64,000 nucleotides of DNA from an uncultured Actinomycetes bacterium. GTDB taxonomy: Bacteria; Actinomycetota; UBA4738; HRBIN12. Location: positions 43,159 through 107,158 of the forward strand of contig CAZHRY010000001.1 of NCBI GenBank assembly GCA_964535065.1, in the 5' to 3' direction. Shown piece by piece: positions 23,639 to 59,113 of the stretch. The notes beneath the pieces were generated by a model that was not told the DNA's origin, did no database searches, and saw only the letters and a list, made by a program, of their open reading frames with translations. Every line of letters begins with the position of its first letter. Positions within the stretch are counted from its first letter, which is position 1. Position numbers and translations under genes: made by a program.

Positions 23639-23746
23639 GGCCCGTAGTGCGGCGAGCGCCTCTCATGCTTGCACCGCCGTTCAGCCTACCGGCGCGCCTG
23701 GGAACATCAGGGCGTGCGATTCACCGATGGTTCCCGGCGAGCCCGG

Positions 23747-24115
23747 ATGGCGATGGCCGTCGACGGGGTGGCGCTAGCACTCTTCGTCGTGACCGGCTCG
23801 CGCTTCCACCAGGACGCCACCCCGCTGGCGGTCTTCCTGAGGAATGCCGTGCCGTTCGGCGGCGCGTGGCTGTTCTTCTCTGCGATCCTCGGCACCTACC
23901 GGCCCGTGAGCTGGGGCGGGTTGCTCAAGACGTGGGCCGCCGTGGTGCCCATGGGCTTGATCCTGAGGGCGGTTTGGATGGGTGCGCCTCTCGGGCCCTG
24001 GAACAGATCATTCGTCATCGCTGCGGCGGGATTCACGCTCGCGTTCCTGGTCGGGGGACGGCTGCTGCTGTCGGTGGGGATCCGTAGGCGACCTTCCAGC
24101 GGGAGGCAAGGATGA
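23747..24115 (+). CDS. DUF3054-family small membrane protein
   Basis: MAMAVDGVALALFVVTGSRFHQD... with 3-4 transmembrane helices. Its stop overlaps the next ATG (ATGA). Confidence 0.55.
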   Translation: MAMAVDGVALALFVVTGSRFHQDATPLAVFLRNAVPFGGAWLFFSAILGTYRPVSWGGLLKTWAAVVPMGLILRAVWMGAPLGPWNRSFVIAAAGFTLAFLVGGRLLLSVGIRRRPSSGRQG

Positions 24116-30680: not shown

Positions 30681-30763
30681 CCGGCGTAGTCTGGCTGTCC
30701 GGAGCCCGGAAGTCCAAGACGGGGTTGACCCACACGCCCGCCAGCGATGTATGCTCCCCCACC

Positions 30764-35179: not shown

Positions 35180-35214
35180 CCCGTTCCCCTCCTTGCGTCG
35201 AAGGACTGACCGGC

Positions 35215-35224
35215 GGTTCAAACC
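35215..35224. promoter_or_regulatory. GGTTCAAACC near-palindromic motif upstream of the pot-1 substrate-binding protein gene (variant CGGTTCGAACA at 35266-35276)
   Basis: The same 13-nt core ggcggttcaaacc also occurs at 55254-55266, and cgttcaaacc at 55187-55196, in the TetR/CrtI-like divergent promoter. Confidence 0.4.
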
Positions 35225-35465
35225 GGCCGATGGGGGTGAGTACCATAGGCCGGGCGTGCTATGCAAGGTCCGGTTCGAACAACCCCCTCTGACCTAGCCC
35301 CCTTGGAAGCCTTCGCTGAGACCGTTCCGAGTCCCGACCGGAGTTACGGATGGGAACGGCTCGGCGGATGGGTCTGCGGCCGAACCGCTCCTGCGCCGTC
35401 AGGCCATGTGGCAGTTGACGTTGCGGTGGAAGCGTTGTGATGTGCCGGTATCAGGGTCCGCCCGG

Positions 35466-35873
35466 CTAGCAGGCCGGGGCGTCGGGGTTGTCAAGGCAGA
35501 GCTCGATGTGGCTCTGGATCTCGTCGAACAGGTCTCCTACCTCGCCTGCGACAGAGATGATGAAGACCAGGAAGGAGATGCTGGCGAGGACGCTCACGAT
35601 CCCCAGCACCAGCCCTGCCGTCGCGCTTCCCTGGTTGGGGGCGCCGTGCTTCGCGTTGGACCGGCCGATCGCTCCAAAGATGATGGCCAGTGTTCCGAGC
35701 AGGAGGCCGGCCCAAACGGTCCAGAATAGGAAGACGCCGATGATCCCCAGGACCAGGGCGGCGGTGGCGAGGCCGTTCGACCTCTCGGGAGCCTGCACGT
35801 AGGGCTGCTGCCCGGGGGGCGGCGGAAGCGGCGACGCGCCCGGCGCCCGTGGCCGGCTCTCGCTGTCGGTCAT
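35466..35873 (-). CDS. DUF4190-family membrane protein
   Basis: Pro-rich N-terminus, then two transmembrane helices of the LATAALVLGIIGVF...IIFGAIGRSNAKHG type. GAGGAG ribosome-binding site 8 nt upstream. Confidence 0.6.
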   Translation of the reverse strand: MTDSESRPRAPGASPLPPPPGQQPYVQAPERSNGLATAALVLGIIGVFLFWTVWAGLLLGTLAIIFGAIGRSNAKHGAPNQGSATAGLVLGIVSVLASISFLVFIISVAGEVGDLFDEIQSHIELCLDNPDAPAC

Positions 35874-41264: not shown

Positions 41265-42685
41265 GCGAACCGTGGCAGCTGACGGCGGCTGAGGCTCTGC
41301 GCCAGATGCGCGCGAAGCAACTCTCGCCGGTAGAGCTTCTCGACAGCGTCATCGAGCGGGCGGAGGTGGCGGAGCCCGTCGTGAACGCCCTGTGCGAGCG
41401 TCGGTACGGCGAAGCACGCGATGCCGCGAAGGGGTCGGAGCGCAGGTACCAGGCCGGCGAGAGGATCCGTCCGCTCGAGGGCATCCCGGTAGGCCTGAAG
41501 GAAGAGGTGCCCGTGCGCGGCTGGACCATGAGGTATGGCTCCCTCGCCATGAACGAGAAGGCTGACGCGACGGCACCGATCGCCGAGCGGCTCTTGAAAG
41601 CGGGCGCCGTGGTTCACGCCAGGACCACCACCCCGGAGCTGTCGTGCGCCGGCTTCACGCATTCGAAGCTCTGGGGTGTGACGAGGAACCCATGGAACAC
41701 GTCGGTCGCCGTCGGCGGGTCCAGTGGGGGTTCGGGAGCGTCCCTCGCGTCCGGCACCTCGCTGCTCGCTAGCGGTTCGGACATCGGAGGTTCCATCCGG
41801 CTTCCCGCTTCGATGAACGGGGTGGTCGGGTTCAAGCCGCCTCACGGCCGGGTGCCGACCTATCCGCCCTTCAACCTCGACCGCTACTGCCACGACGGCC
41901 CCATGGCTCGCACGGTCGAAGACTGCGCGCTGTTCCAGAACGTGATCGCTGGACCCCATCCCATCGATGTGGCCTCGCTGAGGCCGAGGCTCCGCGTCCC
42001 CCTCGAGCCCAAGGGGATCGAGGGGTGGAGGATCGCGGTGTGCACCGACCTGGGCGCTTGGAAGGTAGAGGAGGAGGTCGTGGCCAATACGCTGGCGGCG
42101 GCCGACGCCCTCAGCCAGGCGGGGGCCGTCGTCGAAGAGGTGAGCCTTCCGTGGGACCTCGAGGAGATCATGGGCGTCGGCCGCCGCCACTTCGCAGCGA
42201 TCTTCGGGGCGCAGATCGCCGACCTCGTCCATCGAGTCCCGGACCTCGTTTGCGACTACGTGGCGGCCTGGGCTGAAGAGGCGGAGCTAGTGGCCGGCGA
42301 ACCGGGCTCGTTCCTGATCGGGCTCGAGGGAGAGCAGCGGATATGGGAGCCGTTGTCACGGATCCTCCGCCGGTACCGGGCTCTCATCGCCCCGACGTGG
42401 GCGACCATCGGCATCCCGGCCGGCGACAGCTTCCTCGGCAAGATCTTCCCGAGCGGCGGTCCGCTCGACGCCCAGTTCCAAGTCATGATGACGACGCCGT
42501 TCAACATCCTGTCCCCCTGTCCCGTGCTCGCCGTACCGTCGGGGAGGGCTTCGAACGGTGTTCCCACCGGAGTCCAGATCGTGGGACGCACGTACAGCGA
42601 CGTCGACGTGTTCCGCGTGGGCGCGGCCCTCGAGCGGGTGCGTCCCTGGCCGGTGAATGCTCCGGAAGGCCTCCCGGCTATCTGA
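41261..42685 (+). CDS. amidase (amidase-signature family)
   Basis: Amidase signature GGSSGGSGASLASGTSLLASGSDIGGSIRLPA. TTG start overlaps the upstream stop (TTGA). Confidence 0.8.
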   Translation: MSEPWQLTAAEALRQMRAKQLSPVELLDSVIERAEVAEPVVNALCERRYGEARDAAKGSERRYQAGERIRPLEGIPVGLKEEVPVRGWTMRYGSLAMNEKADATAPIAERLLKAGAVVHARTTTPELSCAGFTHSKLWGVTRNPWNTSVAVGGSSGGSGASLASGTSLLASGSDIGGSIRLPASMNGVVGFKPPHGRVPTYPPFNLDRYCHDGPMARTVEDCALFQNVIAGPHPIDVASLRPRLRVPLEPKGIEGWRIAVCTDLGAWKVEEEVVANTLAAADALSQAGAVVEEVSLPWDLEEIMGVGRRHFAAIFGAQIADLVHRVPDLVCDYVAAWAEEAELVAGEPGSFLIGLEGEQRIWEPLSRILRRYRALIAPTWATIGIPAGDSFLGKIFPSGGPLDAQFQVMMTTPFNILSPCPVLAVPSGRASNGVPTGVQIVGRTYSDVDVFRVGAALERVRPWPVNAPEGLPAI

Positions 42686-43598
42686 CAGCGGCCGCGAGCG
42701 CGGAGATGTCGTCGGGGGTCGTGCCGCAGCAGCCGCCGACCAGCATCGCGCCTGCGGAGCGCCAAGCGGGAGCCAGCGCACCGAAGTCGGGCCGGGGGCC
42801 GCCGTCGGCACGCCAGACCTTCCGATCCGCGTCCCATGTAGAGCCGAGATTGGGGTAAGCGACCAGCGGCTTCGTCACCCCCGCCCGACCAGCGCTTCCT
42901 AGCAGGTCGGGGACGAAGGCGGGCGGTGAGCAGTTGACGCCGACGGCTGCCACCCGGTCGCTCGAGGCCGCCAGCGTGGCCGCTTCTGCGAAGGAAGTGC
43001 CGTCGCTGATGCTGGCACCGTCGCGGCAGCTGAAGCTCACCCAGGCGATCGCCTCCGGATAGGCATCCAGCAACTCGACCAATGCTTCGGCCTCTTCCCT
43101 GGCGGGGATCGTTTCGATCGCCAGCAGGTCCGGTTCGGCGCTCAGCAGCACCTCCAGGCGTGGCCGGTGGAAGTCGATCAGGTCCTGTACCGAGAGTCCG
43201 TACCTGCCTCGATACTCCGACCCGTCGGCGAGCATGGCGCCGTAGGGGCCCACCGAGGCCGCCACCAGGTGGCCGGGCCCTGCCTCTTCGGCGGCTTCTC
43301 GGGCCAGCCGGACGCTCAGCCGGAGCAGTTCCTCGGCGCGTGAGCGGTCTGTACCCCGCGAAGCGAAGCCCTCGAACGAGGCCTGGTAGCTCGCGGAGAT
43401 GACCACATCCGCCCCGGCCCCGAAGTAGTCGGCGTGTACCGCTCGTATCGACCCCGGGTCGTCCAGCAGCAGCCGAGCCGACCAGAGGGCGTCCCGGAGG
43501 TCTTGGCCGCGCGCCTCGAGCTCCGACGCGAGCCCCCCATCCAGCACGAGCCCGCCTCGCATCCGTTCGCGCACGTCCATGAACCGAACCATACCCAA
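42678..43598 (-). CDS. mmuM: homocysteine S-methyltransferase
   Basis: LDGGLASELE, DVVISASYQAS and GGCCGTTP (Zn-binding Cys) are collinear with MmuM. Overlaps the amidase 3' end by 8 nt (convergent). Confidence 0.8.
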   Translation of the reverse strand: MGMVRFMDVRERMRGGLVLDGGLASELEARGQDLRDALWSARLLLDDPGSIRAVHADYFGAGADVVISASYQASFEGFASRGTDRSRAEELLRLSVRLAREAAEEAGPGHLVAASVGPYGAMLADGSEYRGRYGLSVQDLIDFHRPRLEVLLSAEPDLLAIETIPAREEAEALVELLDAYPEAIAWVSFSCRDGASISDGTSFAEAATLAASSDRVAAVGVNCSPPAFVPDLLGSAGRAGVTKPLVAYPNLGSTWDADRKVWRADGGPRPDFGALAPAWRSAGAMLVGGCCGTTPDDISALAAAVR

Positions 43599-44830: not shown

Positions 44831-45928
44831 TCAGTCCTGACGGAGGATCGCCGCGTCCTCACGCATCCAGCTGAGAACTACCGGGTCGCCCTCTCGCACC
44901 TGCGACACCGAAGCGTCGGATAGCTCATGCACGATGAGCCGCTTGCCCATGTCCGTGTCCACGTGGAACTGGGTCAGGGTGCCCAGGTAGACGACCTGAG
45001 CGACCTTCCCGGACACACGGCTGGGATGCTCCAGCTGCTCGGCATCGGCGGGTCTCAGCCAGATGCGCTCGGGTCTGACGGTCACCGTGAGGGTCGAGCC
45101 CGCCGACGCGCCCGTCGATGCGATCGGAACGACTATCCGCTCTCTATCACCGAGTCGCATGACGGCGTCCGGACCCGACACCTCGTCCACGCGGAAGTCG
45201 ATCGCGTTCAACACGCCGACGAAATCGGCGACGAAGGGCGTTTCGGGGAAGTCGTAGATATCGCGAGGGGTCCCCAGCTGCTCGATCCGGCCCTGATTCA
45301 TCACCGCTATCCGGTCCGACATGGACAGGGCTTCTTCCTGGTCGTGGGTCACATAGACGAAGGTGGTTCCCAGCTCGTGCTGGATGCGCTTCAGCTCCAG
45401 CTGCATGGCCTTGCGCAGCTTCACGTCCAGGGCGCCGAGCGGCTCGTCCAGCAGGAGCGCCGCCGGCCGGTTGACCAGGGCCCGGGCTAGAGCCACGCGC
45501 TGCTGCTGGCCGCCAGACAACTGTGCCGGCTTGCGCGCACCCATCCCGGCAAGCCCCACGATCTCGAGCATCTCTGCAACGCGGGCGTCCCGCTCTGCCT
45601 TCGGAACCTTCTTCAGCTTGAGGCCATACGCGATGTTCTTCTCCACCGTCATGTGAGGGAAGAGCGCGTAGTGCTGGAAGCACATGTTCACCTCACGCTT
45701 GTTGGGCGGCACACCCACGACGTCCGCTCCGCGGAGGAGGATCGCGCCCCGGTCGGGCTCCTCGAAGCCCGCGATCATCCGCATGGTCGTCGTCTTGCCG
45801 CAACCGGAAGGCCCAAGCAAGGTGATGAACTCCCCTTCGGCGATCTCCAACGACACGTCGAGAACGGCACGGACGTCGCCGAACGACTTGCTGACATCGC
45901 GGATGCTTATCGCAGACCCTTCGTTCAT
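44831..45928 (-). CDS. ABC transporter ATP-binding protein, PotA-like
   Basis: [30 protein letters not shown] and a C-terminal TOBE domain. The ATG overlaps the upstream permease stop (ATGA). The ORF-track 651-aa version is a frame run-on. Confidence 0.85.
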
Positions 45929-46824
45929 CCATCCCCTCCTGCGCCTGCAACAGGCGTGAGTTCCGTGTCTTCGAATACCTCGCGCACTCCCTCGCCAAGC
46001 GTCCTGGCCGACCTGACCCACAAGACTTCGGTGAGAATGACGGCGATCGAGGACACGACCAGCACCACCACCGCCACCGCCGGCATCTGGGGCAGCTGTC
46101 TGGGCAGTCGCAACTGGGAGTAGATGTACAGGGGAAACGTGGTCGTCTGTCCTGCTACGAACGAGGCCAGGACTATCTCGTCGAACGAGATCACGTAGCT
46201 CAGGACGAACGACGAGACCACGGCGGGTGCGAGCAGGGGGAACGTGACCGACCGGAACGCGACCCACCATCCGGCACCTAAGTCGCGGGCCGCCTCTTCC
46301 AGCGCGACAGGGATCCGCTCGAGGCGCGGGATGATCGTCAGGACGGCGAACGGCAGGGCTATGACCACGTGCGCGATGATGAGTGTGATCGCCCCGAACT
46401 CGAACGGGATGCCTGCGGGCTCTAGGACGTAGACCTTGACGTAGTTGAACAGGATCAGCATCGCCGTTCCCAGGACGACCAGCGGGACGACCAGAGGTGC
46501 GAGCAGGAAGCCTGATGCGAGGCCCTTGCCGAAGAAGCGTCTCCGCTGCATCGCGATGGACGCGGGGATGGCGAGCGTCGTCGTGATGACACTGGCTATA
46601 GCCGCTATCCAAGCGCTGGTCTTCAAGGCGTTCATCAGCTCGCTGTTGTGGATGAACTCGGAATACCAGCGGGTGGTGAAGCCCTCCCACGGGAACGAGA
46701 CGAACTCCCTGTCGTTGAAGCTGAAGATCATCAGGATCAGGAGCGGTGCATACAGGAACAAGACGAGGATCCAGAAAACGATCCAAAGACCTGCCTTGCC
46801 ACCTCTGGATGCGGCCATGTTCAT
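45925..46824 (-). CDS. ABC transporter permease (PotC-like)
   Basis: 299 aa, 6 transmembrane segments, EAA loop LEEAARDLGAGWW. Confidence 0.8.
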   Translation of the reverse strand: MNMAASRGGKAGLWIVFWILVLFLYAPLLILMIFSFNDREFVSFPWEGFTTRWYSEFIHNSELMNALKTSAWIAAIASVITTTLAIPASIAMQRRRFFGKGLASGFLLAPLVVPLVVLGTAMLILFNYVKVYVLEPAGIPFEFGAITLIIAHVVIALPFAVLTIIPRLERIPVALEEAARDLGAGWWVAFRSVTFPLLAPAVVSSFVLSYVISFDEIVLASFVAGQTTTFPLYIYSQLRLPRQLPQMPAVAVVVLVVSSIAVILTEVLWVRSARTLGEGVREVFEDTELTPVAGAGGDG

Positions 46825-47741
46825 GCCGCCACGCTCCTGACGTTCAGGTAGCGGCCGAAAACCGCTAGCAGGATCGCTACGGCGAACACCAGGAACATCG
46901 CCATCGCCGAGCCGAACTGCCAGTCCAGCCCGAAGGTGAAGGCGCTCTGGATCGCGCTGCCGAACATGAAGCCCTTGGGTCCTCCCACGAGCTGTGGTGT
47001 GACGAACTCACCGATCGTCGGGATGAACACGAAGATGAACCCGGCGATCGCACCCGGGATCGACAGGGGGAACGTGATCGACCAGAAGGTACGCAGACGA
47101 GAGGCGCCCAGGTCCGAGCTGGCCTCAAGCAGCCTGACATCCATGCCCTCCAGCGCAACGAAGATAGGCAGAGCGACGAACGGCACCCACACGTAGCTGA
47201 GCACCACGTAGATGGCGAACTGGCTGTTGAAGAGCCATGAGATGGGTTGGTCCAGGACTCCCAGAGTGTCGACGAGGAACGTGTTGATGACGCCCTGCGG
47301 GTTGAGCAGGACACGCCATGCGAGGATCCTGAGCAGGTAGCTGGTCAGGAACGGAACCATGAGCACCAGGAGCAAGGTGTACTTGCGTGCCCCCGCAAGC
47401 AGGGCGAGCAGATAGGCGATGGGGTACGCGAGGATGAGGGTCGTGAAGGAGACGATCAGGGACATGCGAACCGACTTCCAGAACAGGCCCTTGCCGAGGA
47501 CGTGGAAGCCGCCCATGTACGTGTCGGAGAACAGGAAGTCCTTCCACGGCGTCACGGTCCACTCGGAGATGTCGTTGGGTGAGAGCCCCGAGACCCCGCC
47601 GACGCTGTAGACGGCTATCAGCACGACCGGAACCACGAAGAACCGACCTACCCAGCCGAGGGGTGCTGCGCGGATGGTCCTGGTGGCGGCGGCGCCCTTC
47701 GGACGCCGCCGCCGCACTCCGGTCACGTCGGTCGTGGTCAT
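46821..47741 (-). CDS. ABC transporter permease (PotB-like)
   Basis: 306 aa, 6 transmembrane segments, EAA loop LEASSDLGASRLRTFWSITFP. Confidence 0.8.
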   Translation of the reverse strand: MTTTDVTGVRRRRPKGAAATRTIRAAPLGWVGRFFVVPVVLIAVYSVGGVSGLSPNDISEWTVTPWKDFLFSDTYMGGFHVLGKGLFWKSVRMSLIVSFTTLILAYPIAYLLALLAGARKYTLLLVLMVPFLTSYLLRILAWRVLLNPQGVINTFLVDTLGVLDQPISWLFNSQFAIYVVLSYVWVPFVALPIFVALEGMDVRLLEASSDLGASRLRTFWSITFPLSIPGAIAGFIFVFIPTIGEFVTPQLVGGPKGFMFGSAIQSAFTFGLDWQFGSAMAMFLVFAVAILLAVFGRYLNVRSVAA

Positions 47742-48893
47742 CTAGCCGATCGACGCCTTCACCTCGTCCCAGGCTCGGTTGTACTTGTCGCGCTCAGGCT
47801 GATACCGGTCGAAATAGCTCGCCGGTTCGGCGAGGTTCGTCTCGGGGTCATCGAGGCCGAACACTTCGACGACCTCAGGATCGATGGCATCCAGGTCGAT
47901 GTTGGTGTTCGCATGCCCGTAGCCCCACGAACTCACCAACCGCTGGCCCACCTCCACGCTTGCCCAGGCGTCCGCGAACTCGTGCGCGTGGTAGTAGTTC
48001 TCCGTCTCGGACCTGAGCACCAGCCCCTCTGCCCATGAGAGGACCCCCTCCTTGGGCCTGCTGTAGTGCACGGGCACGTCTTCCTTCAGGACCACGAACG
48101 CATCCGGCCAGGCGTAGGTCGCCCACAGGTTCCCCTGGCGCACGTCATCCCACATCTGGGTGAAATCCACCCAGATGGAGTAGACGTTCTTCGCCTTCGA
48201 GATGCAGTAGTTCTTCGCCTCTTCCAGCTCCTCGTCCGTCATGAAGAACGTCTGATCTCCGGCGATGCCGAGGGTCAGCGCCGCCATCTGGATCACCCAG
48301 GGAGTGTCGAACCAACCGATGTGTCCCGCGTTGGCGTCATCGAAGATGTAGGAGTATGAGTTGATGCTTGGATCCACGTGGTCGCTGCGGATCAGCACAC
48401 CCGAATAGCCCCAGTCGGTGACGATCTCGTACTGGTCTTCGCCGATCCGTCCGTGCTGCTCCAGCACATCCGTGAGTTGAGAGAAGTTGGGGATCAGCGA
48501 AGTGTCCCAGGGCTGCAAGGCCCTCATGTTCACGTAGTCCTGGATGTATCCGGTCTCGGGGTGAGTGATGTCCCACTCGAAACCCCCTTGGGTCTTCGCG
48601 ATGACCCCCTCGGTGTTCGTGAGGAAGGAGAACTTGGGGTCCGGATACCCCTTCTCGGCGTACTGCTTCCAGATCCACTTGGCCTCATAGCCCGACCACT
48701 CGTGGATGGCGAGCACACCCGGCTCTTCCTCGATCGGCGGTCGCTGGGTCGTTGTCGTGCCGCCTCCAGGCGAAGTCGCGGTGGTCTCCTTCCGGCACGC
48801 CGCCAGCACACCCATCCCGCCTACCGCGGCCATGCCCTTCAGGAACTGCCTGCGGCTCGCGGCGTTGCTTAGCACCGCATCGAATTGACCCAT
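47742..48893 (-). CDS. polyamine-type ABC substrate-binding protein (PotD/PotF-like)
   Basis: Start at MGQFDAV... with the Tat-like signal SRRQFLKGMAAVGGMGVLAAC (lipobox) and an AGGAGGG ribosome-binding site. The ORF-track N-terminal extension is rejected. Confidence 0.8.
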   Translation of the reverse strand: MGQFDAVLSNAASRRQFLKGMAAVGGMGVLAACRKETTATSPGGGTTTTQRPPIEEEPGVLAIHEWSGYEAKWIWKQYAEKGYPDPKFSFLTNTEGVIAKTQGGFEWDITHPETGYIQDYVNMRALQPWDTSLIPNFSQLTDVLEQHGRIGEDQYEIVTDWGYSGVLIRSDHVDPSINSYSYIFDDANAGHIGWFDTPWVIQMAALTLGIAGDQTFFMTDEELEEAKNYCISKAKNVYSIWVDFTQMWDDVRQGNLWATYAWPDAFVVLKEDVPVHYSRPKEGVLSWAEGLVLRSETENYYHAHEFADAWASVEVGQRLVSSWGYGHANTNIDLDAIDPEVVEVFGLDDPETNLAEPASYFDRYQPERDKYNRAWDEVKASIG

Positions 48894-49004
48894 GGGATCT
48901 CCCTCCTCCTGCTCCCCCGTCGCCCCTCGACCCGCGGATGATGTCGTGCTAGCTCGGGTTGTGCAAGCCGAGTTGCGCTGGACGGTACCTGGGAACATCT
49001 GAGC

Positions 49005-50264
49005 ATGACCGACTTCTGGCACCCATTCGCTGACATGGCGTCGATCGAGGCTGGCGGTGAACTGACGGTCTCGCGCGGTGAGGGCAGCCACATCTGGGAC
49101 TCGGATGGACGGCGCTACCTGGATGCGACCGCCGGGCTCTGGTACTGCAACGTGGGTCACGGGCGGGTCGAGATAGCCGACGCGGTTAGCAGGCAGCTGA
49201 CCGAGCTCGAGGCCTACTCCTGCTTCCAGGACCTGACGAATCCGCCGACCGCCGCTCTGGCCGAACGGGTGGCGGCGCTCGCGCCGGTTCCCGGGTCGAA
49301 GGTGTTCTTCACCAGCGGTGGCTCGGACTCGATCGACACCGCCACCAAGATCGTGCTGAGGCACTGGTCCCTGGTCGGCGAGCCGCAGAGGACCGTGCTC
49401 ATCCGGAGGGAGCGCGCCTACCACGGCATGCACACGGCCGGGACGTCGCTCGCGGGCATCCCGGCCAACCTGGAGGGGTATGGAGGCCTGCTCCGCGACG
49501 TGGTGGAGGTGCCCTGGGACGACGCGGAGGCGCTTCGCGAGGCGATCGAACGGATCGGGCCGGACAGGGTCGCCGCCTTCTTCTGCGAACCGGTCATCGG
49601 GGCGGGTGGGGTGTTCCCGCCGCCGGATGGCTACCTGGAAGCGGCGCGGCTGGTGTGTCGCGAGACGGGCGCGCTGTTCATCGCCGATGAGGTCATCACC
49701 GGGTTCGGCCGGTGCGGTGAGTGGTTCGCCAGTTCCAGGTGGAACCTGGAGCCCGACCTGATCACATGCGCGAAGGGCATCACCAGCGGGTACCTACCCC
49801 TGGGAGCCGTGATAGCCGCGCCGCGGGTGTGGGAGCCTTTCTGGAAGAAGGAGGCCGGCATGTTCCGCCACGGCTACACCTACACCGGGCACGCCGCCGT
49901 CTCGGCGGCCGCGTTGGCCAACCTCGACATCATCGAACACGAAGGACTGCTCGAACGCGCCGGGCAGCTTGAAAGGGAGCTTGCGGCGGCCCTGGCGCCG
50001 CTGGAGCGGAAGGCCCTGGTGAGCGAGGTTCGCCGTGGAACCGGCGTCCTGGCGGCGGTGCAGGTCGATGGGGACGCGCTGGCCGCCGACCCTTCCCTGC
50101 TGGGTCGCGTGGTGCCTGCGTGCCGAAGGAACGGCGTTATGACCAGGATCCTTGCGACCGGAGCGATCCAGGTGTCGCCCCCTCTGATCCTGGACGGCGA
50201 AGGCCTGGATGAGCTGGCCGGGGGCCTGGAGGCGGCCATCGACGAGATGGAGGCGGGGTCGTGA
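49005..50264 (+). CDS. class III (omega) aminotransferase, putrescine--pyruvate aminotransferase SpuC-like
   Basis: WHPFADMASIEAGGELTVSRGEGSHIWDSDGRRYLDATAGLWYCNVGHGR and IADEVITGFGRCGEWF...CAKGITSGYLPLGAV (PLP Lys) are collinear with P. aeruginosa SpuC. Confidence 0.85.
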   Translation: MTDFWHPFADMASIEAGGELTVSRGEGSHIWDSDGRRYLDATAGLWYCNVGHGRVEIADAVSRQLTELEAYSCFQDLTNPPTAALAERVAALAPVPGSKVFFTSGGSDSIDTATKIVLRHWSLVGEPQRTVLIRRERAYHGMHTAGTSLAGIPANLEGYGGLLRDVVEVPWDDAEALREAIERIGPDRVAAFFCEPVIGAGGVFPPPDGYLEAARLVCRETGALFIADEVITGFGRCGEWFASSRWNLEPDLITCAKGITSGYLPLGAVIAAPRVWEPFWKKEAGMFRHGYTYTGHAAVSAAALANLDIIEHEGLLERAGQLERELAAALAPLERKALVSEVRRGTGVLAAVQVDGDALAADPSLLGRVVPACRRNGVMTRILATGAIQVSPPLILDGEGLDELAGGLEAAIDEMEAGS

Positions 50265-51376
50265 TCGTAGGTATACCCACCGAGGTCAAGAACCACGAGT
50301 ACCGGGTGGCCGCCACACCGGAGGGTGTGCGGGAGCTGGTTCACGCGGGTCACAGGGTTGTGGTCGAGGCAGGGGCCGGGCTTGGCTCCGCCATCACCGA
50401 CGAGCAGTACGCGGCTGCCGGTGCCGAGGTCCTGCCGGATGCGGACTCGGTGTTCGCTGCCGCTGAGCTGATCGTGAAGGTGAAGGAACCGCAGGCGGAA
50501 GAGTACGAGCGGTTCCGTTCCGACCACATCTTGTTCACCTATCTGCATCTGGCTGCCGACGAGGGCTTGACCAAGTTCCTCGTGGAACGCGGTCTCCGCG
50601 CAGTGGCCTACGAGACGGTGCAGACGCCGGACGGGCACCTGCCGCTCCTGGCGCCCATGTCCGAGATCGCGGGTCGTATGGCTCCCCAGGTCGGCGCCAA
50701 GGCCTTGGAGAAGCCGCAGGGCGGCCGCGGCGTCTTGATGGGGGGAGCATCGGGCGTGCTCCCCGCCAAGGTGGTCGTGCTCGGTGGCGGCATGGCCGGC
50801 TGGAACGCCGCCGAGATCGCAGCGGGCATGCAGGCTGAGGTCGTCGTCGTGGACAAGAACGTGGACCGGCTGCGTGAGATAGACCGGATCTGGCACGGGC
50901 GGATCCAGACGGTCATGTCGTCTCGCCTTGCCATCGAGCACCTCGTGCTCGGCGCGGACCTGGTGATCGGTGCCGTGCTGGTTCCCGGCGCCCGGGCGCC
51001 CCACCTGGTGACGGAGGACACGGTCAAGGCGATGCGCCCGGGCGCCGTCTTGGTCGACATCTCGATCGACCAGGGGGGCTGCTTCGAGACCTCGCACGTG
51101 ACCATGCACGCGGACCCCACCTACGTGCTGCACGATGTCGTCCACTACTGCGTCGGGAACATGCCCGGCGCGGTGCCGCGGACCTCCACATATGCGCTGA
51201 CCAACGTGACCCTTCCCTACGTCGCAGCGATCGCCGGGAAGGGGCTCGAGGGCGCCGTTCGCTCGGATCCTGCCCTCTCCTTGGGTGTGAACGTCTGGGA
51301 CGGGCGGGTGACGAACGCTGGGGTGGCCGAGGCTACGGGCCTCGAGGCCTCGGAGCTGGCCGAGGTATTGACTTAG
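50261..51376 (+). CDS. ald: alanine dehydrogenase
   Basis: [23 protein letters not shown]... almost collinear with the M. tuberculosis Ald N-terminus. NAD motif [13 protein letters not shown] start overlaps the spuC-like stop (GTGA). Confidence 0.9.
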
Positions 51377-52551: not shown

Positions 52552-53432
52552 GGAGCTTCCCCTGTGTGAGGGGCGCCGCGCGCGCCGGCGACCGTGACCG
52601 ACAGGGTCGCCGCTTCGACGGCGCGCGCGGCGCCCCCCTCCAGGTCCATCCCCTCCCAGAGCGCAGCTGCGAGCGCGCCGTTCAGGCAGTCTCCCGCTCC
52701 CGTCGTGTCCACCACCTCGACTTCCGGAGCGGCGATCGGGGTCGCTTCGCCCCCATGAACGAGGAGCGCTCCTTTGGGGCCGAGGGTTACCAGGATCGCC
52801 AGCCCTTGGATCCGCGACGCGAGCGCCAGCGCCGCCTCCTCGGCGTTCTGGTGCCCGGGGGACAACTCGGTGAGCTCGTCCCTGTTCGGCGTAGCGACGA
52901 GGGCCCCGTCGAGCAGGTTCCGCAGCCGGGGCGAAGAGGGGGCCGGGTTCACGATGAAGCCGACGCCGTTCTCGCGGCACCAGCGCGTGGCGGATGAGAG
53001 GGCGGCGTAGGGGACCTCGCAGCTCATGAGGACGAGCGACGGTGCGAGAACGGCCAGCGGCTCGGCGGGGTCGAAGGTCCAGTTGTTGGCCCCCGGTGCG
53101 ACGGCGATCTGGTTCTCGCCCTTGGCGTCGACAGCTATCAGCGCCACTCCGGTGGGCTCGGCCTGGACCTGCACCGAGGACACGTCGATACCCTCGGTTC
53201 GAAGCGCCTCAACTGCCTCCTTCCCGAGGGCGTCGTCGCCCACCGCGCCGATCATCGCGACGTGCGCCCCGGCACGCGCCGCCGCGACAGCCTGATTCCC
53301 ACCTTTGCCGCCGTGATGGGTGGCGAACGAGCCTCCGACCACCGTCTGCCCCGGCCTGGGCAAGGCGGCCCCGGAGATCACCAGGTCTTCGTTTATCGCG
53401 CCGAGGACGGCCAGGGGACCGTGACGGCTCAT
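52548..53432 (-). CDS. rbsK: ribokinase
   Basis: GGKGGNQAVAAARAG, DTTGAGDCLNGALAAAL and an anion-hole region. 294 aa from MSRHGPLAVLGAINEDL. The ATG overlaps the nucleoside hydrolase stop (ATGA). The ORF-track 550-aa version is a frame run-on. Confidence 0.85.
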   Translation of the reverse strand: MSRHGPLAVLGAINEDLVISGAALPRPGQTVVGGSFATHHGGKGGNQAVAAARAGAHVAMIGAVGDDALGKEAVEALRTEGIDVSSVQVQAEPTGVALIAVDAKGENQIAVAPGANNWTFDPAEPLAVLAPSLVLMSCEVPYAALSSATRWCRENGVGFIVNPAPSSPRLRNLLDGALVATPNRDELTELSPGHQNAEEAALALASRIQGLAILVTLGPKGALLVHGGEATPIAAPEVEVVDTTGAGDCLNGALAAALWEGMDLEGGAARAVEAATLSVTVAGARGAPHTGEAP

Positions 53433-54421
53433 GCTCGGGCCTCGACCAGACCGCGAAGCCTCTCGACCATCAGCGTCACCACTGCGGGTGCATCGACCGA
53501 GGTAGCCACGCATGCGTTGTCTTGTTCCGTCCAGTCGGACCAAGGGCTCGTGCGGATCCCGAGCAGGTCGGTCACGGTCTCCCCGCGAGTGAAGCGGCCG
53601 TCCAGCTCGACCTCGACGCGCGTCATGGCCCAGGTGCAGAGCGCAGGGTTCAACGCCGCCGCGAGCGCGAGCGGGTCGTGCATGCACGCGCCCTCGTACC
53701 GGCCGGTCGACGCGTAGAAGTCGGCGTAGGAGCTGACCGATCCTTGGATCAGCCGAGCCAGCTCGGAGCCGGGAGCCGGAGCGCAGATGGCGTCGACGTC
53801 CTTCTGCGAGAGCCACACCTGCTCCGTCACGTCCAGCCCGAGGCAGCGAGGCAGCTTCGACGGCCCTGCCCCGGACCAGGATGCGAACACGCGCGATGCG
53901 GCATCCGCGTCCATCCATACGTTCGCCTCGGCGCGAGGAGTGACGTTGCCCCCTTCGCGGAAGGCACCGCCCATCAGCGTGTAGCCGCCGAGCAGCTCCG
54001 GCAGCAGCGGTTCCCGTTCGACGGCCGTGGCGACGTTCGTGAGCGGGCCCGTGGAAACGAGGAAGACCTCGCCGGGCCGGCGGCGCGCCTCCTCCACGAT
54101 CAACGTCGCCGCATCGCGGGCCGACGGCGTGCCGGCCGGCTCCCCGGGCGTGAACGCTCCCAGTCCCTCCGCCCCGTGGACGATCTCGAAGGCCTTCCAA
54201 TCCTGGACCAGCGGCCGCTCGGCCCCGCGTGCTACTTCGACCCGTTTCAGGCCGGCCAGCTCCAGCACGAGGAGGGAGTTCCTGACCACCTTGTCCAAGT
54301 GGACGTTGCCGGTCACGCAGGTGACACCCACGAGTTCGACCTCCGGAGAGGCGGCGGCGAGGAGCAACGCCACCAGGTCGTCCACCCCCGTGTCGACGTC
54401 CATGATGACCGGCATGGGCAT
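53429..54421 (-). CDS. nucleoside hydrolase (inosine-uridine-preferring IUNH family)
   Basis: VIMDVDTGVDDLVALLLA (DxDxxxDD Ca-binding motif). 330 aa. Confidence 0.85.
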   Translation of the reverse strand: MPMPVIMDVDTGVDDLVALLLAAASPEVELVGVTCVTGNVHLDKVVRNSLLVLELAGLKRVEVARGAERPLVQDWKAFEIVHGAEGLGAFTPGEPAGTPSARDAATLIVEEARRRPGEVFLVSTGPLTNVATAVEREPLLPELLGGYTLMGGAFREGGNVTPRAEANVWMDADAASRVFASWSGAGPSKLPRCLGLDVTEQVWLSQKDVDAICAPAPGSELARLIQGSVSSYADFYASTGRYEGACMHDPLALAAALNPALCTWAMTRVEVELDGRFTRGETVTDLLGIRTSPWSDWTEQDNACVATSVDAPAVVTLMVERLRGLVEARA

Positions 54422-54498: not shown

Positions 54499-55128
54499 TC
54501 AGGTGCCCAGCCCGCCGTCGTAGCCGATCAGGCGCTTGGCCACGTCGCTCGCGATCTCCTTCATCTTGTCCGGCGTCATGCGCGTGTCGTTCAGCATGAC
54601 CTGGATCGCGAGGCCGTCGATGATGGCACCTAGCTGGAGCGCCAGATCGTCGGCATCCTTGCCGTCGGCCGGGAATTCACCCGTCTGGCGGCCGTACCTG
54701 ATCACGTCGGCGATCGACTGGACCCACCGGCGGTCCAGGGACTCCCGCTCCTTGGCCAGGTCGGGATCGCGGAGGGCGCGGACCCAGATCTCGAGCCAGA
54801 GCGCCCATTCGTCCAGCAGCGAATACTCCGGGAGCAGCCCCGGCACCGACAGCTCCAGCAGCCGCGCGAGCCTCTCCTTCGCGGAAGTCATGCGCCGCAT
54901 CTCGCGCGACACCCGGAGATAGAACTGGTCGTTCGTGTAAGTCAGGGCCTCCACCAGGAGCCTGTCCTTGGATTCGAAGTAGTAGAGGATCAGGCCGGGT
55001 GAGACCCCGCAGCGCTCGGCGATGTCCTGGATCCGGGTCTCGGCCATCCCCCTCTCGGTGATGACGGCCGAAGCCGCTTCCAGGATCTCCTGGTGGCGGT
55101 CCCTCTGCCTCTGCCTCGCCTTCGCCAT
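54499..55128 (-). CDS. TetR/AcrR family transcriptional regulator
   Basis: HTH region ILEAASAVITERGMAETRIQDIAERCGVSPGLILYYFESKDRLL. Divergent from the CrtI-like oxidoreductase gene. Confidence 0.8.
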   Translation of the reverse strand: MAKARQRQRDRHQEILEAASAVITERGMAETRIQDIAERCGVSPGLILYYFESKDRLLVEALTYTNDQFYLRVSREMRRMTSAKERLARLLELSVPGLLPEYSLLDEWALWLEIWVRALRDPDLAKERESLDRRWVQSIADVIRYGRQTGEFPADGKDADDLALQLGAIIDGLAIQVMLNDTRMTPDKMKEIASDVAKRLIGYDGGLGT

Positions 55129-55187
55129 CCTGCTCTCCTTGAACGCCGTACAGGTATCGGCCCTTCACAGCCCGTTCCTGTATGCCC

Positions 55188-55265
55188 GTTCAAACCACTG
55201 TACCTGCCTGACCTGGGATGTCAAAACGGGACCGCATATCGTCAAGTTGACTGGCGGTTCAAACC
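55188..55265. promoter_or_regulatory. two copies of the cGTTCAAACC / gGTTCAAACC motif 69 bp apart in the TetR/CrtI-like divergent promoter
   Basis: Copies at 55188-55196 and 55257-55265 (extended: ggcggttcaaaccg). The same motif is upstream of the pot-1 substrate-binding protein gene at 35215-35224. Also CAGGTA/TACCTG inverted elements at 55148-55156 and 55199-55206. Confidence 0.4.
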
Positions 55266-55346
55266 GAGTGCATGATAGGCGGGTCTGGCGCCCTTGGCCG
55301 GCGGGGCGCCGCCGGGGGTTAGCGCCGGGGGAAGGACAGAACGATC

Positions 55347-56969
55347 ATGGCTTCCAACGTCTACGACGCCATAGTCATAGGAGGCGGTCACAACGGCCTC
55401 ACGAGCGGGGCGTACTTCGCTCGCGACGGAGCGAAGACCGTCGTTCTCGAGGCTCGGGAGAAGACCGGAGGCGCGGCCGACACGAGCGCGCCGTTCCCCG
55501 ACCACCCTGAGATCAGCGTCACGACCTACTCCTACGTCATGTCCCTGATGCCGCCGACCATCATCAGGGAACTCAAGCTCAAGCAGTTCGGCTACGACGT
55601 GACCCCGTTCGGCCCGTACTTCCAGGCCTATCCCGACGGCCGGGCCGTGACCGTGTACGCCGACGACGCTGCGAAGTCCTACGACTCGATCTCCCAGTTC
55701 TCGAAGAAGGACGCGGACACCTTGCCCAAGTGGGAGGCGTGGCTCAAGGGAGTTGCAGACGTCCTCGGCCCGCTGCTCCTTCAGGTGCCACCCCACGTTG
55801 GGTCGATGAAGCCGATGGACCTCCTGCAGACGGTCCAGACCGCGTGGAAGATGCGCAAGCTGGGCGAGCGCGGCGTCGGCGACGTGACGCGGCTGTTCTC
55901 GATGAGCGTCACCGACCTGCTCAGCGATTGGTTCGAGTCCGACGCGGTCAAGGGGATGCTGGCCGTCAACGGCGTCATCGGCACGTGGGCGGGCCCCGAC
56001 GAGCCCGGGACCGCATACGTGATGCTCCACCACTCGATCGGCGACGTCGGGGACGGCCACCTCGGCTCCTGGGGGTTCCAGCAGGGCGGCATGGGTGCGG
56101 TCAGCGATTCGATCCGGCGCAGCGCCGAGGCGTTCGGATGCGAGATCCGCACGAACGCGAGGGTCAAGAAGATCCTGGTGCGCGGCGGGCGTGTGGTGGG
56201 CGTGGCGCTGGAGAGCGGCGAGGAGCTTCGCGCTCCGGTGGTCGTGAGCGCGATCCATCCCAAGTTCGCGTTCCTGGAACTGCTGGAACGTCTCGAGCTG
56301 CCGGCCGACTTCGTCTGGGACATCGAGCGTTGGAAGACGCGCTCGGGGGTCGTCAAGATCAACGTCGCCCTGGGCGAGCTGCCGGAGTTCTCGTCGCGGC
56401 CCGGCAAGGGCCTGCAGGATCACCACACCGGCTCGGTCGAGCTGTGCTTCTCTACCGAGTATGCGGAGAGGGCGTTCCAGGACGCACACATGGAGCGCAA
56501 GCCTGCCGTCGCGCCTTTCGTGGATGGGACCATCCCGACGACGCTGGACAAGAAGCTGGCGCCGGAGGGTACGCACGTGATGTCGATGTTCACGCAGTGG
56601 GTTCCCGACGACTGGACCCAGGAGCCCCATCGGGAGGAGCTGGATGCCTACGCGAAGAGGATCTTCGACCTCTACGACGAGCTGGCTCCCAACTTCAAGA
56701 GCTCGATCATCGACTATCAGGTGATCGGGCCCTACGACATGGAGCAGGATCTGGGCCTGATCGGCGGGAACATCTTCCACGGCGAGCTATCGGTGGACCA
56801 GCTCTTCCACATGCGGCCGGCACCCGGATACTCGGATTACAGGACGCCGCTCAAGGGCCTGTACCACGGGTCGTGCGCCACCCACGCCGGCGGCGGGGTC
56901 AACGGCATCCCGGGGTGGCAGGCTTACCGCATGGCCAAGAAGGACAAGGCGCTGGGCTCGAAGAAGTAG
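55347..56969 (+). CDS. phytoene-desaturase-family (CrtI-like) NAD(P)/FAD-dependent oxidoreductase, possibly an amine oxidase
   Basis: YDAIVIGGGHNGLTSGAYFARDGAKTVVLEAREKTGGAA (Rossmann GxGxxG plus downstream E). 540 aa. Paralogue of the partial gene at 62895. Confidence 0.8.
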   Translation: MASNVYDAIVIGGGHNGLTSGAYFARDGAKTVVLEAREKTGGAADTSAPFPDHPEISVTTYSYVMSLMPPTIIRELKLKQFGYDVTPFGPYFQAYPDGRAVTVYADDAAKSYDSISQFSKKDADTLPKWEAWLKGVADVLGPLLLQVPPHVGSMKPMDLLQTVQTAWKMRKLGERGVGDVTRLFSMSVTDLLSDWFESDAVKGMLAVNGVIGTWAGPDEPGTAYVMLHHSIGDVGDGHLGSWGFQQGGMGAVSDSIRRSAEAFGCEIRTNARVKKILVRGGRVVGVALESGEELRAPVVVSAIHPKFAFLELLERLELPADFVWDIERWKTRSGVVKINVALGELPEFSSRPGKGLQDHHTGSVELCFSTEYAERAFQDAHMERKPAVAPFVDGTIPTTLDKKLAPEGTHVMSMFTQWVPDDWTQEPHREELDAYAKRIFDLYDELAPNFKSSIIDYQVIGPYDMEQDLGLIGGNIFHGELSVDQLFHMRPAPGYSDYRTPLKGLYHGSCATHAGGGVNGIPGWQAYRMAKKDKALGSKK

Positions 56970-57013
56970 TGGGGAGTCCAGAGGGATCGGGAGCCGGAGG
57001 AGGCCTCGAGCGG

Positions 57014-59113
57014 ATGCTCGAGGCTCGGTCCGTCGCGGTCGTCGGCGCCTCCGTCAAGGAGGGCTCGCTCGGCGCGCAGATGATGACCGAGCTGCGCCGA
57101 GGGGGGTTCGACGGCTCGGTCTACCCGGTCAACCCTGGGTACGAAGAGGTAGACGGATACACCTGCTTCCCTTCGATACTCGAGGTGCCTGAGCCGCCCG
57201 ACCTGGCCATCATCGGCGTGGCCAATGCCCGCATCGAAGCGGCCGTCGGTGACGCGGTCAAGGCCGGTGCGGGGAGCATCGTGACCTTCTCCTCTCTGCA
57301 CGAGGAGCCGGACGACCGGCCCAGCCCCGATGCGCCGTCGCTGCGCGAGCGGGTCGCCGCGATCTGCGCGCAGCATGGGGTCCCGCTCTGTGGAGGCAAC
57401 GGCATGGGGTTCATGAACGAGGAGCGCCGTCTGCGGGCGACGGGGTTCCCGACGCCGGAGGGCTCGAGGATGGGGCCCGTGACCTTCATCTCACATTCGG
57501 GTTCCGCCTTCGCTGCCTTCGCGTTCAACGACAGGCAGATCGGCTTCAACCTGCTGATCTCCAGCGGCCAGGAGATCGTCACGACGATGGGCGAGTACAT
57601 GGAGTACGCGCTCGGACTGCCTTCGACCCGGGTGCTCGCGTTGCTGCTCGAAACGGTGCGGAACCCGTCCCTGTTCATCTCGCAGCTCGCGCGCGCCGCC
57701 GAACTCGACATCCCCGTGATAGCTCTGAAGGTCGGCAGGACCGAGAGCGCCAAGGCGATGGTCACGGCACACTCGGGGGCCTTGGCGGGCGAGCATGGCG
57801 CCTACGAGGCTCTGTTCGACGCCTACGGGGTGCACGAGGTTCGGTCGGTGGACGAGCTAGCGGACACGATCGAGTTGTTCGCATGCCCGAGGCGCGTCAC
57901 ATCCGGCGCTGGGATCGCGAGCGTTCACGACAGCGGCGGGGAGCGGGCGCTCTTCGTGGACCAGGCACACGACGAGGGCGCCTTCCTGGCGAACGTGTCC
58001 GATGAAACCCTGCGCCGCATACAGGACACGCTGGATCCTGGGCTAGAAGCGGCCAACCCCCTCGACGCCTGGGGGACGGGGATCGACGCCGATCGCATCT
58101 TCCGGGATTCCTTCATGGCGTTCGCGGACGATCCCGAGGTGGCCGCGCTGGCCTTCGTCGTCGACCTGACCAGGCAGGGAGAGCCGTACGACGAGGGCTA
58201 CCTGCAGATCGCGCGGGACGTCTTCGCCGCGACCACCAAACCTTTCTGCGTACTGTCCAACCTTCCAGCGGCCATCGCAGCCGAAGAGGTGAGGCTGCTC
58301 CGTGACGCGGGCATACCCGTGCTCGAGGGGACGGCGAGCGGGCTCAGGGCGCTGAGGCATCTGATACTCGACCGGGACTTCCGTGCTCGTCCCGATCCCG
58401 AGATCGCCCCTGTGCCGGCAGCGGTACGCGACCGCTGGCGGGCCCGGCTGAGTGAGGGTGGAGAGATCCGGGAACTGGAGGGCTTGGCGCTGTTCGCGGA
58501 CTACGGCATCCCGGTCGTGGAGGCTGCCGCCGCCGCGACCGCCGAGGAGGCGGTCGCGGCGGCGGGCACGATCGGGTATCCGGTCGTCCTGAAGACGGCC
58601 GCACCCGGGGTACACCACAAATCCGACGTCGGGGGCGTGAAGGTCGGCCTGGAAGGACCTGAGGAGCTGGTCGCGGCGTACGAGGAGATGTCGAGCAGGC
58701 TGGGGCCCGAGGTCGCCGTGGCGGCGATGGCCCCCGATGGCGTCGAGGTGGCGCTCGGCGTGGTCAGAGATCCCACGTTCGGCCCACTCGTGCTGGTCGC
58801 GGCGGGCGGCGTGCTGGTGGAACTGCTGAAGGACCGCAGGCTAGGACTCCCACCGCTCGACCGGCGCGCCGCCCGCCGCTTGATCGACGGATTGAAGATC
58901 CGCCCGATACTGGACGGTGTCCGCGGCGCGCCGGCCGCCGACGTGGACGCGCTGGCACGGGCCGTCTCTGCGCTGGCGACGCTGGCCTCCGACCTGGGAG
59001 ATCGCCTGGACGCCCTGGATGCCAACCCGGTGATCGTCTCGCCTTCGGGCTGCGTGGCCGTGGACGCTCTCGTGATCCCCCGAGCGCCGCAGGACCAGCC
59101 GCCCTTGCCCTGA
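57014..59113 (+). CDS. acyl-CoA synthetase (NDP-forming; fused alpha/beta), paralogue of 36865..38970
   Basis: Start at MLEARSVAVVGAS (CoA-binding motif) with a GGAGGAGG ribosome-binding site. 699 aa. The ORF-track 1127-aa version is an upstream frame run-on through the CrtI-like gene. Confidence 0.8.
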   Translation: MLEARSVAVVGASVKEGSLGAQMMTELRRGGFDGSVYPVNPGYEEVDGYTCFPSILEVPEPPDLAIIGVANARIEAAVGDAVKAGAGSIVTFSSLHEEPDDRPSPDAPSLRERVAAICAQHGVPLCGGNGMGFMNEERRLRATGFPTPEGSRMGPVTFISHSGSAFAAFAFNDRQIGFNLLISSGQEIVTTMGEYMEYALGLPSTRVLALLLETVRNPSLFISQLARAAELDIPVIALKVGRTESAKAMVTAHSGALAGEHGAYEALFDAYGVHEVRSVDELADTIELFACPRRVTSGAGIASVHDSGGERALFVDQAHDEGAFLANVSDETLRRIQDTLDPGLEAANPLDAWGTGIDADRIFRDSFMAFADDPEVAALAFVVDLTRQGEPYDEGYLQIARDVFAATTKPFCVLSNLPAAIAAEEVRLLRDAGIPVLEGTASGLRALRHLILDRDFRARPDPEIAPVPAAVRDRWRARLSEGGEIRELEGLALFADYGIPVVEAAAAATAEEAVAAAGTIGYPVVLKTAAPGVHHKSDVGGVKVGLEGPEELVAAYEEMSSRLGPEVAVAAMAPDGVEVALGVVRDPTFGPLVLVAAGGVLVELLKDRRLGLPPLDRRAARRLIDGLKIRPILDGVRGAPAADVDALARAVSALATLASDLGDRLDALDANPVIVSPSGCVAVDALVIPRAPQDQPPLP

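Follow-up and report, generated by a model that had tools for sequence, protein, structure and literature searches.

In Proteobacteria the bet genes are repressed by BetI, a TetR-family protein that responds to choline and also regulates its own gene, from a divergent promoter region with the BetI operator. The arrangement usual in the TetR family is a 16-bp palindrome found both at the promoter of the regulator gene and at that of a divergent target. Among actinobacterial regulators, KstR (TnnAACnnGTTnnA) and BioQ (TGAAC-N3-GTTCA) have operators built on GAAC/GTTC half-sites. Here we describe a locus with this kind of layout in a 64,000-nucleotide stretch of DNA from an uncultured Actinomycetes bacterium (assembly GCA_964535065.1, contig CAZHRY010000001.1, positions 43,159 to 107,158; called the window below), where the gene of a BetI-type TetR regulator (tetR) is divergent from that of a CrtI/CrtO-family FAD oxidoreductase (the CrtI-like gene), and an importer operon with a PotD-type binding protein lies 20 kb away. 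We consider it probable that a 16-bp palindrome found at all three is the operator of the adjacent TetR repressor and controls the tetR, CrtI-like and importer operons. An earlier note on this DNA had proposed joint control of the importer and the CrtI-like gene by a single regulator, in the simplest case the adjacent TetR; the sites in orthologs, the co-occurrence of TetR and element and the gene neighbourhood support that proposal, and the three operons would very probably form one small regulon.

The regulator (209 aa; 54499-55128, minus strand) shares the TetR_N plus TetR_C_6 architecture of BetI, including the BetI-type C-terminal domain, and BetI is its best NCBIfam match. TetR_N was assigned at E = 2.2e-15 (56.6 bits against a cut-off of 24), whereas the BetI equivalog cut-offs were missed, with 87.8 against 201.3 bits for TIGR03384 and 78.3 against 118 bits for NF001978. 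The system as predicted is a standard TetR/operator regulon whose regulator is BetI-like and not a BetI equivalog. While BetI targets betA, betB and betT, the proposed targets here are the CrtI-like/ADP-forming acyl-CoA synthetase operon and the PotD-type importer. No bet genes lie beside tetR, whose neighbours are a nucleoside hydrolase gene and the CrtI-like/synthetase pair; a BADH-like aldehyde dehydrogenase gene is 26 kb off, its product scoring below the cut-off.

The closest solved relative of the regulator is a putative TetR from Saccharomonospora viridis (PDB: 4ich, 4kwa, 4jnn, 4nel), with 36% identity over almost the whole protein (E ~5e-31), which was crystallised with choline, benzamidine or an N,N-dimethyl amine. 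A single-sequence AlphaFold model of our TetR was poor (pLDDT 58) and served only to retrieve PDB titles; the relationship was established by sequence. The S. viridis protein comes from structural genomics without a described operator or regulon, so its structure is silent on DNA targets, and a ligand preference may be inferred from it by analogy at 36% identity. A similar gene pairing occurs in Mycobacterium tuberculosis, where the TetR Rv3830c adjoins the 'phytoene dehydrogenase' Rv3829c, and where an Rv3830c frameshift accompanies 14-fold higher Rv3829c expression, read as lost repression (PMC3814196). The likeness is one of gene pairing; the portion of that paper dealing with the pair reports no operator sequence or transporter link. 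Literature on the operator, on BetI operators and on this gene combination gave nothing usable beyond this analogy.

Orthologous loci were taken from the best 80 of 516 confirmed relatives of the CrtI-like protein in species-representative genomes, nearly all of them uncultured soil Actinomycetota, with 80-89% identity. A TetR gene is divergent from the CrtI-like gene in 75 of the 80, encoding a protein 60-82% identical to ours, and the intergenic region measures 185-294 bp where it is complete. Judged from these loci, what is conserved is an imperfect palindrome of 16 bp, YTGWMY-N4-RTTCAR, of which the motif in the earlier note is the strong right half (GTTCAA). Three putative operators in the window carry it. 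Operator A (55178-55193, CTGTAT-GCCC-GTTCAA) lies 4-19 nt downstream of the tetR -10 box and holds the first intergenic copy of that motif. Operator B (55247-55262, TTGACT-GGCG-GTTCAA) holds the second, its left half being the -35 box of the CrtI-like gene. Operator C (35206-35221, CTGACC-GGCG-GTTCAA, or TTGAAC-CGCC-GGTCAG on the gene strand) follows the -10-like box of the binding-protein operon, 27-42 bp ahead of the binding-protein ATG. The 16-mer YTGWMYNNNNRTTCAR matched exactly A, B and C in the window, where 0.08 matches were expected.

The motif first described, the near-palindromic 10-mer GGTTCAAACC read as GGTT-ca-AACC, fared less well as a unit. With up to one mismatch it was found in just 13 of 75 orthologous intergenic regions, and we rejected it; the comparison of orthologous regions that the note had called for nevertheless showed the 16-bp element to be kept in about 75 species, at the tetR and the CrtI-like promoter alike. 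Only the xGTTCAr core was kept in the alignment, the GG and ACC flanks of the near-palindrome being variable, and the motif was redefined on this ground; GGTT-ca-AACC is not the functional unit. Several particulars stood all the same. The exact 10-mer occurs in the window only at 35215-35224 and 55256-55265, its copy near the binding-protein gene starts 36 bp ahead of the ATG at 35179 (minus strand), and the two intergenic copies are 69 bp apart. The first of these (55187-55196) is not exact, however: it reads CGTTCAAACC, with one mismatch and the flanks cc...ac, so that cGGTTCAAACCg does not strictly occur twice there. The string identical at both loci does exist, as a 14-mer, GGCGGTTCAAACCG, rather than a 13-mer. 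The palindromic variant CGGTTCGAACA, placed at 35266-35276, is actually at 35271-35281, five bases away. This variant, GTTCGAAC, misfits the 16-bp architecture, has no counterpart in orthologs, being altered to GTTCGGGC in the 89%-identical ortholog L102, and was judged a chance occurrence.

Occurrence within the window was of limited help. Allowing one mismatch, the 10-mer had five matches against 1.5 expected, a number reached in 0 of 100 shuffles, and two of the five (13084 and 41829) are intragenic. By our estimate from base composition (the window has a G+C content of ~67%), a 13- or 14-mer common to two places in 64 kb is not improbable; since such sharing is unremarkable, the case rests on the ortholog evidence. 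Between operators B and C, 18 of 19 positions agree (55248-55266 against 35207-35225), and the agreement takes in the spacer GGCG, which is non-consensus, as well as ACCG on the 3' flank. This identity exceeds what the motif needs, and the closest ortholog, L102, has GACG and ACAG there.

We therefore turn to weight matrices for which the orthologous A and B sites were the sole input, the window being left out; the motif search covered the 64-kb window and ~1.1 Mb of related loci. Under these matrices B, C, A and a site at 23669-23684 were the best of ~128,000 window positions. B was the top match under every matrix and C the second-best (17.3, 16.9 and 20.9 bits). In 200 dinucleotide-preserving shuffles, a match of the grade of C under the combined matrix (20.9 bits) was expected 0.01 times per window, and under the single matrices 0.07-0.1 times. 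The other window promoters, namely those of the enoyl-CoA hydratase, the aldehyde dehydrogenase, both acyl-CoA dehydrogenases, the second Pot-like system and the ATPase/MFS region, had no site.

We assigned the sites to the adjacent TetR because its helix-turn-helix region (residues 10-66), nearly invariant among 74 aligned TetR sequences, matches an invariant GTTCA, and because the sites are laid out in the way usual for TetR repressors. That this protein is the binder and the repressor, as well as the nature of its inducer, we infer from sequence. The main competing explanation, which we hold to be unlikely, accepts A, B and C as genuine shared operators and supposes that another protein encoded elsewhere binds them, the adjacent TetR being merely one target. 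It draws on the fact that binding by TetR is predicted from sequence comparison, and on two further spacings of such half-sites in the conserved blocks E1 and P35 described below, which together with the operators hint at more than one protein or binding mode. However, the element tracks the TetR gene. Three loci without a divergent TetR (L067, L074 and L078) had no 16-mer match at all, and where a 47%-identical TetR homolog lies directly upstream of a binding-protein homolog (L091), the same element, GTTGACTCGTTATTCAAG, stands ahead. The palindrome at the regulator's own promoter and the joint invariance of the helix-turn-helix region and the half-site also speak for the adjacent TetR. No further regulator gene was seen in the 29-39 kb interval around the transporter.

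Across the 80 TetR/CrtI loci the 16-mer pattern had no match outside the intergenic region, and within that region an alignment of 76 sequences placed the GTTCA cores of A and B among few conserved blocks. The consensus of the first copy is yTGtatGnnCGTTCAr, followed by the -10 box, and its CGTTCAR half was kept in 65-73 of the 76 regions; that of the second is TTGACTggyGrTTCAAA, with a -10 box at a conserved distance, TTGACT and xTTCA being invariant or nearly so in 76 of 76. The predicted tetR promoter (55197-55224, minus strand; 10/12 in a consensus scan) consists of TTGACA (55224-55219), 16 nt and TACAGT (55202-55197), and the T, A and final T of its -10 box were kept in all 76. The predicted CrtI-like promoter (55247-55276, plus strand; 9/12) consists of TTGACT (55247-55252), 18 nt and CATGAT (55271-55276), with an invariant -35 box and with A2 and T6 of the -10 box kept in 75-76 of 76. 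A and B are thus short palindromes overlapping the start and the -35 box of two predicted divergent promoters, as expected for a TetR repressor.

The left half of B doubles as the -35 hexamer of the predicted promoter, and the conserved blocks might be core promoter elements only, of the -35-like TTGACT/TTGAAC type; two sites in related loci (L024 and L068) likewise open with a hexamer of the -35 type, and a -10-like TATGCT comes after it. We regard this as very unlikely, as the invariant half GTTCA sits in the promoter spacer, A and C lie downstream of -10 boxes, and the element has perfect palindromic symmetry in several orthologs.

Two further operator-like blocks in the intergenic region, no less conserved than the operators, had been missed by the earlier note. 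E1 (55138-55152; TTGAAC-GCC-GTACAG, cTGAACGnCGtACAg) abuts the tetR ribosome-binding site; it is a palindrome with half-sites of the operator type but a spacer of 3 nt. Its TGAACG, kept in 72-76 of 76 sequences, is the most conserved intergenic block, although matrices with a 4-nt spacer do not detect it. P35 (55208-55225; CTGACC-TGGGAT-GTCAAA, CTGACCtGcgaaGTCAAA) is palindrome-like and covers the -35 box and spacer of the tetR promoter, with operator-like half-sites ~5 nt apart and columns kept in 54-75 of 76, non-promoter positions included. E1 has a TGAAC-N3-GTNCA layout, and the operators of KstR and BioQ are likewise short palindromes with (T)GAAC/GTTC(A) half-sites that overlap promoters. 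Those are other regulators with other regulons, and the main operators here have a 4-nt spacer; we take the resemblance as a lead only.

Orthologous binding-protein loci were gathered by metagenome and assembly look-ups (L081, L083-L085, L100-L105 and L108; 52-89% protein identity), and all of them had the element tens of bp ahead of the binding-protein ATG, at 14.1-19.8 bits. At the loci with 59-89% identity (L081, L083-L085, L100-L104, L108) it was the top, often the sole, matrix match in up to 17 kb. The element reads TTGAAC-CGGC-GTTCAA in L083 and L085, which is perfectly symmetrical, CTGAAC-CGGC-GTTCAA in L084 and L103, TTGTTC-GACC-GTTCAA in L100, CTGATC-GACC-GTTCAA in L081 and L108, and TTGGCT-CGCC-GTTCAA in L104. 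The most distant locus, L105 (52% identity), has a 14.1-bit copy upstream of the binding-protein gene and stronger copies by the enoyl-CoA hydratase gene and 20 nt upstream of the aldehyde dehydrogenase gene. In assembly GCA_026003015.1 the element is present at both loci; L022, a TetR locus, and L100, a binding-protein locus, come from this one assembly, so a single genome carries both. An alignment of 10 orthologous upstream regions showed that the flanks of C have diverged save a CTTGCr block and a -10-like box.

This bears on whether C, a GC-poor word in AT-richer intergenic DNA, resembles the TetR region by chance, with only A and B functional. The frequency at which 13- or 14-mers are shared within 64 kb, together with the single-matrix expectation of 0.07-0.1, leaves some room for that idea, but a chance word would hardly keep its position in all orthologous upstream regions examined (59-89% protein identity) while its flanks diverged, nor be the single best match in loci of up to 17 kb, and the gene-neighbourhood link set out next is independent of C. 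We judge coincidence highly improbable, and C probably an operator shared with the TetR region.

In distant lineages the genes themselves come together. A binding-protein homolog (46-50% identity) adjoins, in divergent orientation, a CrtI-like homolog (61-73%) in L086-L090, L092 and L093, with the acyl-CoA synthetase gene detected 3' of the latter in L086-L090. In L091 the TetR homolog stands next to the binding-protein homolog, as described, and in L067 the TetR gene beside the CrtI-like gene is replaced by ABC transporter genes. This recurrent adjacency associates the transporter, the CrtI-like/synthetase operon and TetR independently of the motif.

The least probable explanation is that the blocks act as RNA, through a riboswitch or an E1/A leader hairpin in the tetR 5' untranslated region, for although the leader (55196-55126) folds at -23.7 kcal/mol (z = -3.2), there were no Rfam matches of note, RNAalifold on 76 orthologs gave zero consensus pairs, E1/A hairpin pairs were present in 72.2% of cells against 71.6% when shuffled with no excess covariation, the predicted transcription start inside A leaves the 5' arm incomplete, and B and C have no partner arms. 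The E1/A complementarity is a product of two inverted copies of a palindromic DNA site.

Several observations weigh against the operator reading as a whole. The 16-mer pattern was composed after the sites had been seen, and the left half-sites are weak (CTGTAT, TTGACT and CTGACC). The orthologous sites share phylogeny, so matrices and conservation counts overstate independence. E1 and P35 carry the same half-sites with 3-nt and ~5-nt spacers, and three spacings are more than one dimer in one register can explain; the spacings might reflect a pair of dimers in offset registers or the action of a second factor. At the binding-protein gene, a -10-like TATGGT (35247-35242) and the conserved CTTGCA block (35267-35262) lie upstream of C within 35242-35267 (minus strand), but they are only 14 nt apart, and for this reason the consensus scan called no promoter upstream of the gene; as any promoter there is not a canonical sigma-70 one, the place of C relative to the transcription start is a prediction. 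Finally, the element is absent in the lineages where the transporter adjoins the CrtI-like gene, and the link there must be made by other means.

Taking the palindrome as the TetR operator, we propose the following scheme. A TetR dimer at A, over the tetR transcription start, would autoregulate tetR and probably the downstream nucleoside hydrolase gene too; at B, over the -35 box and spacer, it would shut off the CrtI-like/acyl-CoA synthetase operon; and at C, just past the -10-like box, it would block the PotD-type binding-protein/permease operon 20 kb away. Release of the repressor would come about through a small cationic amine or a metabolite derived from the imported compound, and would turn on import and catabolism at the same time. 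The PotD-like binding protein and the choline-bound relative of the TetR both point to a cationic amine.

The CrtI-like enzyme (540 aa; 55347-56969, plus strand; assigned by Pfam and NCBIfam) is encoded by the first gene of the target operon. It matches CrtI (PDB: 4dgk) over its full length (residues 9-523), and falls short of the NCBIfam cut-offs for crtI_fam TIGR02734 (90.3 against 238.1 bits) and CrtO NF045689 (226.8 against 1000 bits). Solved amine oxidases match its N-terminal region only, residues 5-48 for 7u6l and 7e7h and 2-112 for 6cr0, mainly the FAD-binding motif; Pfam Amino_oxidase scored 35.3 bits, and this family also covers CrtI-type enzymes. No carotenoid-pathway genes (phytoene synthase, geranylgeranyl diphosphate (GGPP) synthase, cyclase) were found among the ~50 window proteins scanned with Pfam; its conserved partners are instead an acyl-CoA synthetase, a TetR regulator and an ABC importer. 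The suggestion that the 'phytoene desaturase-family' enzymes here are flavin amine (polyamine) oxidases rather than carotenoid enzymes agrees with the non-carotenoid context, and less with the full-length likeness to CrtI/CrtO. A non-carotenoid, amine-related catabolic role is likely on this evidence, and a polyamine oxidase identity is conjecture. The CrtI-like protein is 80-89% identical over the 80 species-level genomes, compared with 60-82% for TetR and 53-72% for the acyl-CoA synthetase, an apparent constraint that is unusually strong for an accessory-looking enzyme.

The ADP-forming acyl-CoA synthetase gene (56969-59113, plus strand; Pfam CoA_binding_2, Succ_CoA_lig and ATP-grasp_5) has a GTG start that overlaps the CrtI-like stop, and was found 3' of the CrtI-like gene in 70 of 80 loci. 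On the other side, the inosine-uridine type nucleoside hydrolase gene (53429-54421, minus strand; Pfam IU_nuc_hydro) lies 3' of tetR on the same strand, as in 45 of 80 loci; given this position it is probably co-transcribed with tetR and so autoregulated together with the repressor.

The importer operon begins with the gene of a PotD/PotF-family substrate-binding lipoprotein (33848-35179, minus strand; Pfam SBP_bac_8), which has a Tat signal and a lipobox. Its top 22 PDB matches were all of PotD/PotF type, though it stayed below the NCBIfam equivalog cut-offs for PotD (86 against 582 bits) and PotF (63 against 636 bits). Of the 12 positions that we take to be the contact residues of E. coli PotD, seven were kept in the alignment, namely the acidic D168, E171 and D257 and most of the aromatic ones (W34, Y37, W229 and Y293), and the other five presumed contacts were altered (T35E, E36Q, S83T, Y85D and W255G). 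Two ABC permease genes follow (32819-33751, and 31917-32822 with a GTG start; minus strand; Pfam BPD_transp_1), whose products are PotB/PotH-like in NCBIfam, below the cut-off. The transporter ATPase gene (30725-31885) is on the other strand, convergent to the importer operon, and its product passed the potA subfamily cut-off (371.6 against 355.6); apart from this subfamily-level match, no protein here reached an NCBIfam equivalog cut-off. The system therefore resembles PotABCD and PotFGHI in the solved relatives of its binding protein and in its potA-level ATPase, and differs from them in the convergent ATPase gene on the other strand.

The surroundings lean towards amine and CoA-thioester chemistry, with genes for a BADH-like aldehyde dehydrogenase, for acyl-CoA dehydrogenases and for an enoyl-CoA hydratase, the last together with an acyl-CoA synthetase paralog and an EamA exporter, and with a second Pot-like system beside class-III aminotransferase and alanine dehydrogenase genes. 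The orthologous loci have a GMC oxidoreductase gene (L100, L103 and L104) or dimethylglycine-dehydrogenase-like genes. Choline/betaine-flavoured genes recur near the transporter, among them those for the GMC oxidoreductase, a dimethylglycine-dehydrogenase-like protein with ETF, a homocysteine S-methyltransferase and a BADH-like aldehyde dehydrogenase (L105, 1-4016; window, 42678-43598 and 28007-29458). Judged by this context, quaternary amines are candidates besides polyamines.

Taken further, the locus might encode an undescribed catabolic route for cationic amines, polyamine-like or quaternary, widespread in uncultured soil Actinomycetota, in which a highly conserved CrtI/CrtO-family flavoenzyme acting on a non-isoprenoid substrate is combined with an ADP-forming acyl-CoA synthetase, a PotD-type importer and a BetI-like TetR switch; we offer this tentatively, as a possibility on the doubtful side. 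If true, it would give the phytoene-desaturase family a new catalytic role. A CrtI-like protein that is widespread yet without carotenoid context is here tied by operator and adjacency to a PotD-type importer and a TetR with an amine-binding protein as its nearest solved relative, which provides a clue to an uncharacterised enzyme and a testable hypothesis on its substrate class. With three short DNA probes and one small protein, the regulon and inducer could be determined in vitro, with no culture needed.

Other features of the window stand apart from these three operons. The transporter ATPase gene is divergent from an MFS gene (29442-30680), a layout kept in L100-L105 and L108; the intergenic region between them has a strong operator (20 bits) only in L108, and none in the window. 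The second PotD-like system, also of ABC type (44831-49433, minus strand), has divergent genes next to it for a class-III aminotransferase (49005-50264) and for an alanine dehydrogenase (50261-51376); having no operator, it would be regulated separately. The site at 23669-23684 (TTGCAC-CGCC-GTTCAG, 16.9 bits) is upstream of a DUF3054 gene and a gene for a DAO-family FAD oxidoreductase (24112-25563). Of this site the closest ortholog, L106, has the right half alone, and L107 and L108 lack it altogether; the match could be due to chance or mark a regulon member specific to the lineage.

In most orthologs (L100 and L103-L105) an operon of enoyl-CoA hydratase, paralogous ADP-forming acyl-CoA synthetase and EamA genes is directly divergent from the binding-protein gene and for that reason may share operator C, while a DUF4190 gene separates the two in the window (35466-35873) and in L102. 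Beyond the intergenic region, the 925 kb of the 80 related loci had matches of 17 bits or more in four loci only, all of them in the promoter region of an acyl-CoA-dehydrogenase paralog operon. The 16-mer matches in the additional loci were promoter-proximal as well, in the binding-protein upstream regions, at the aldehyde dehydrogenase gene (L105) and at the TetR homolog gene (L091). Further operators of 16-22 bits were seen in L024 (~1823), L068 (~2963), L076 (~2455), L079 (~1828) and L105 (7845 and 13912), where they stand at the acyl-CoA dehydrogenase paralog operon, at the enoyl-CoA hydratase start or 20 nt ahead of the BADH-like aldehyde dehydrogenase gene, and the periphery of the regulon thus varies among lineages.

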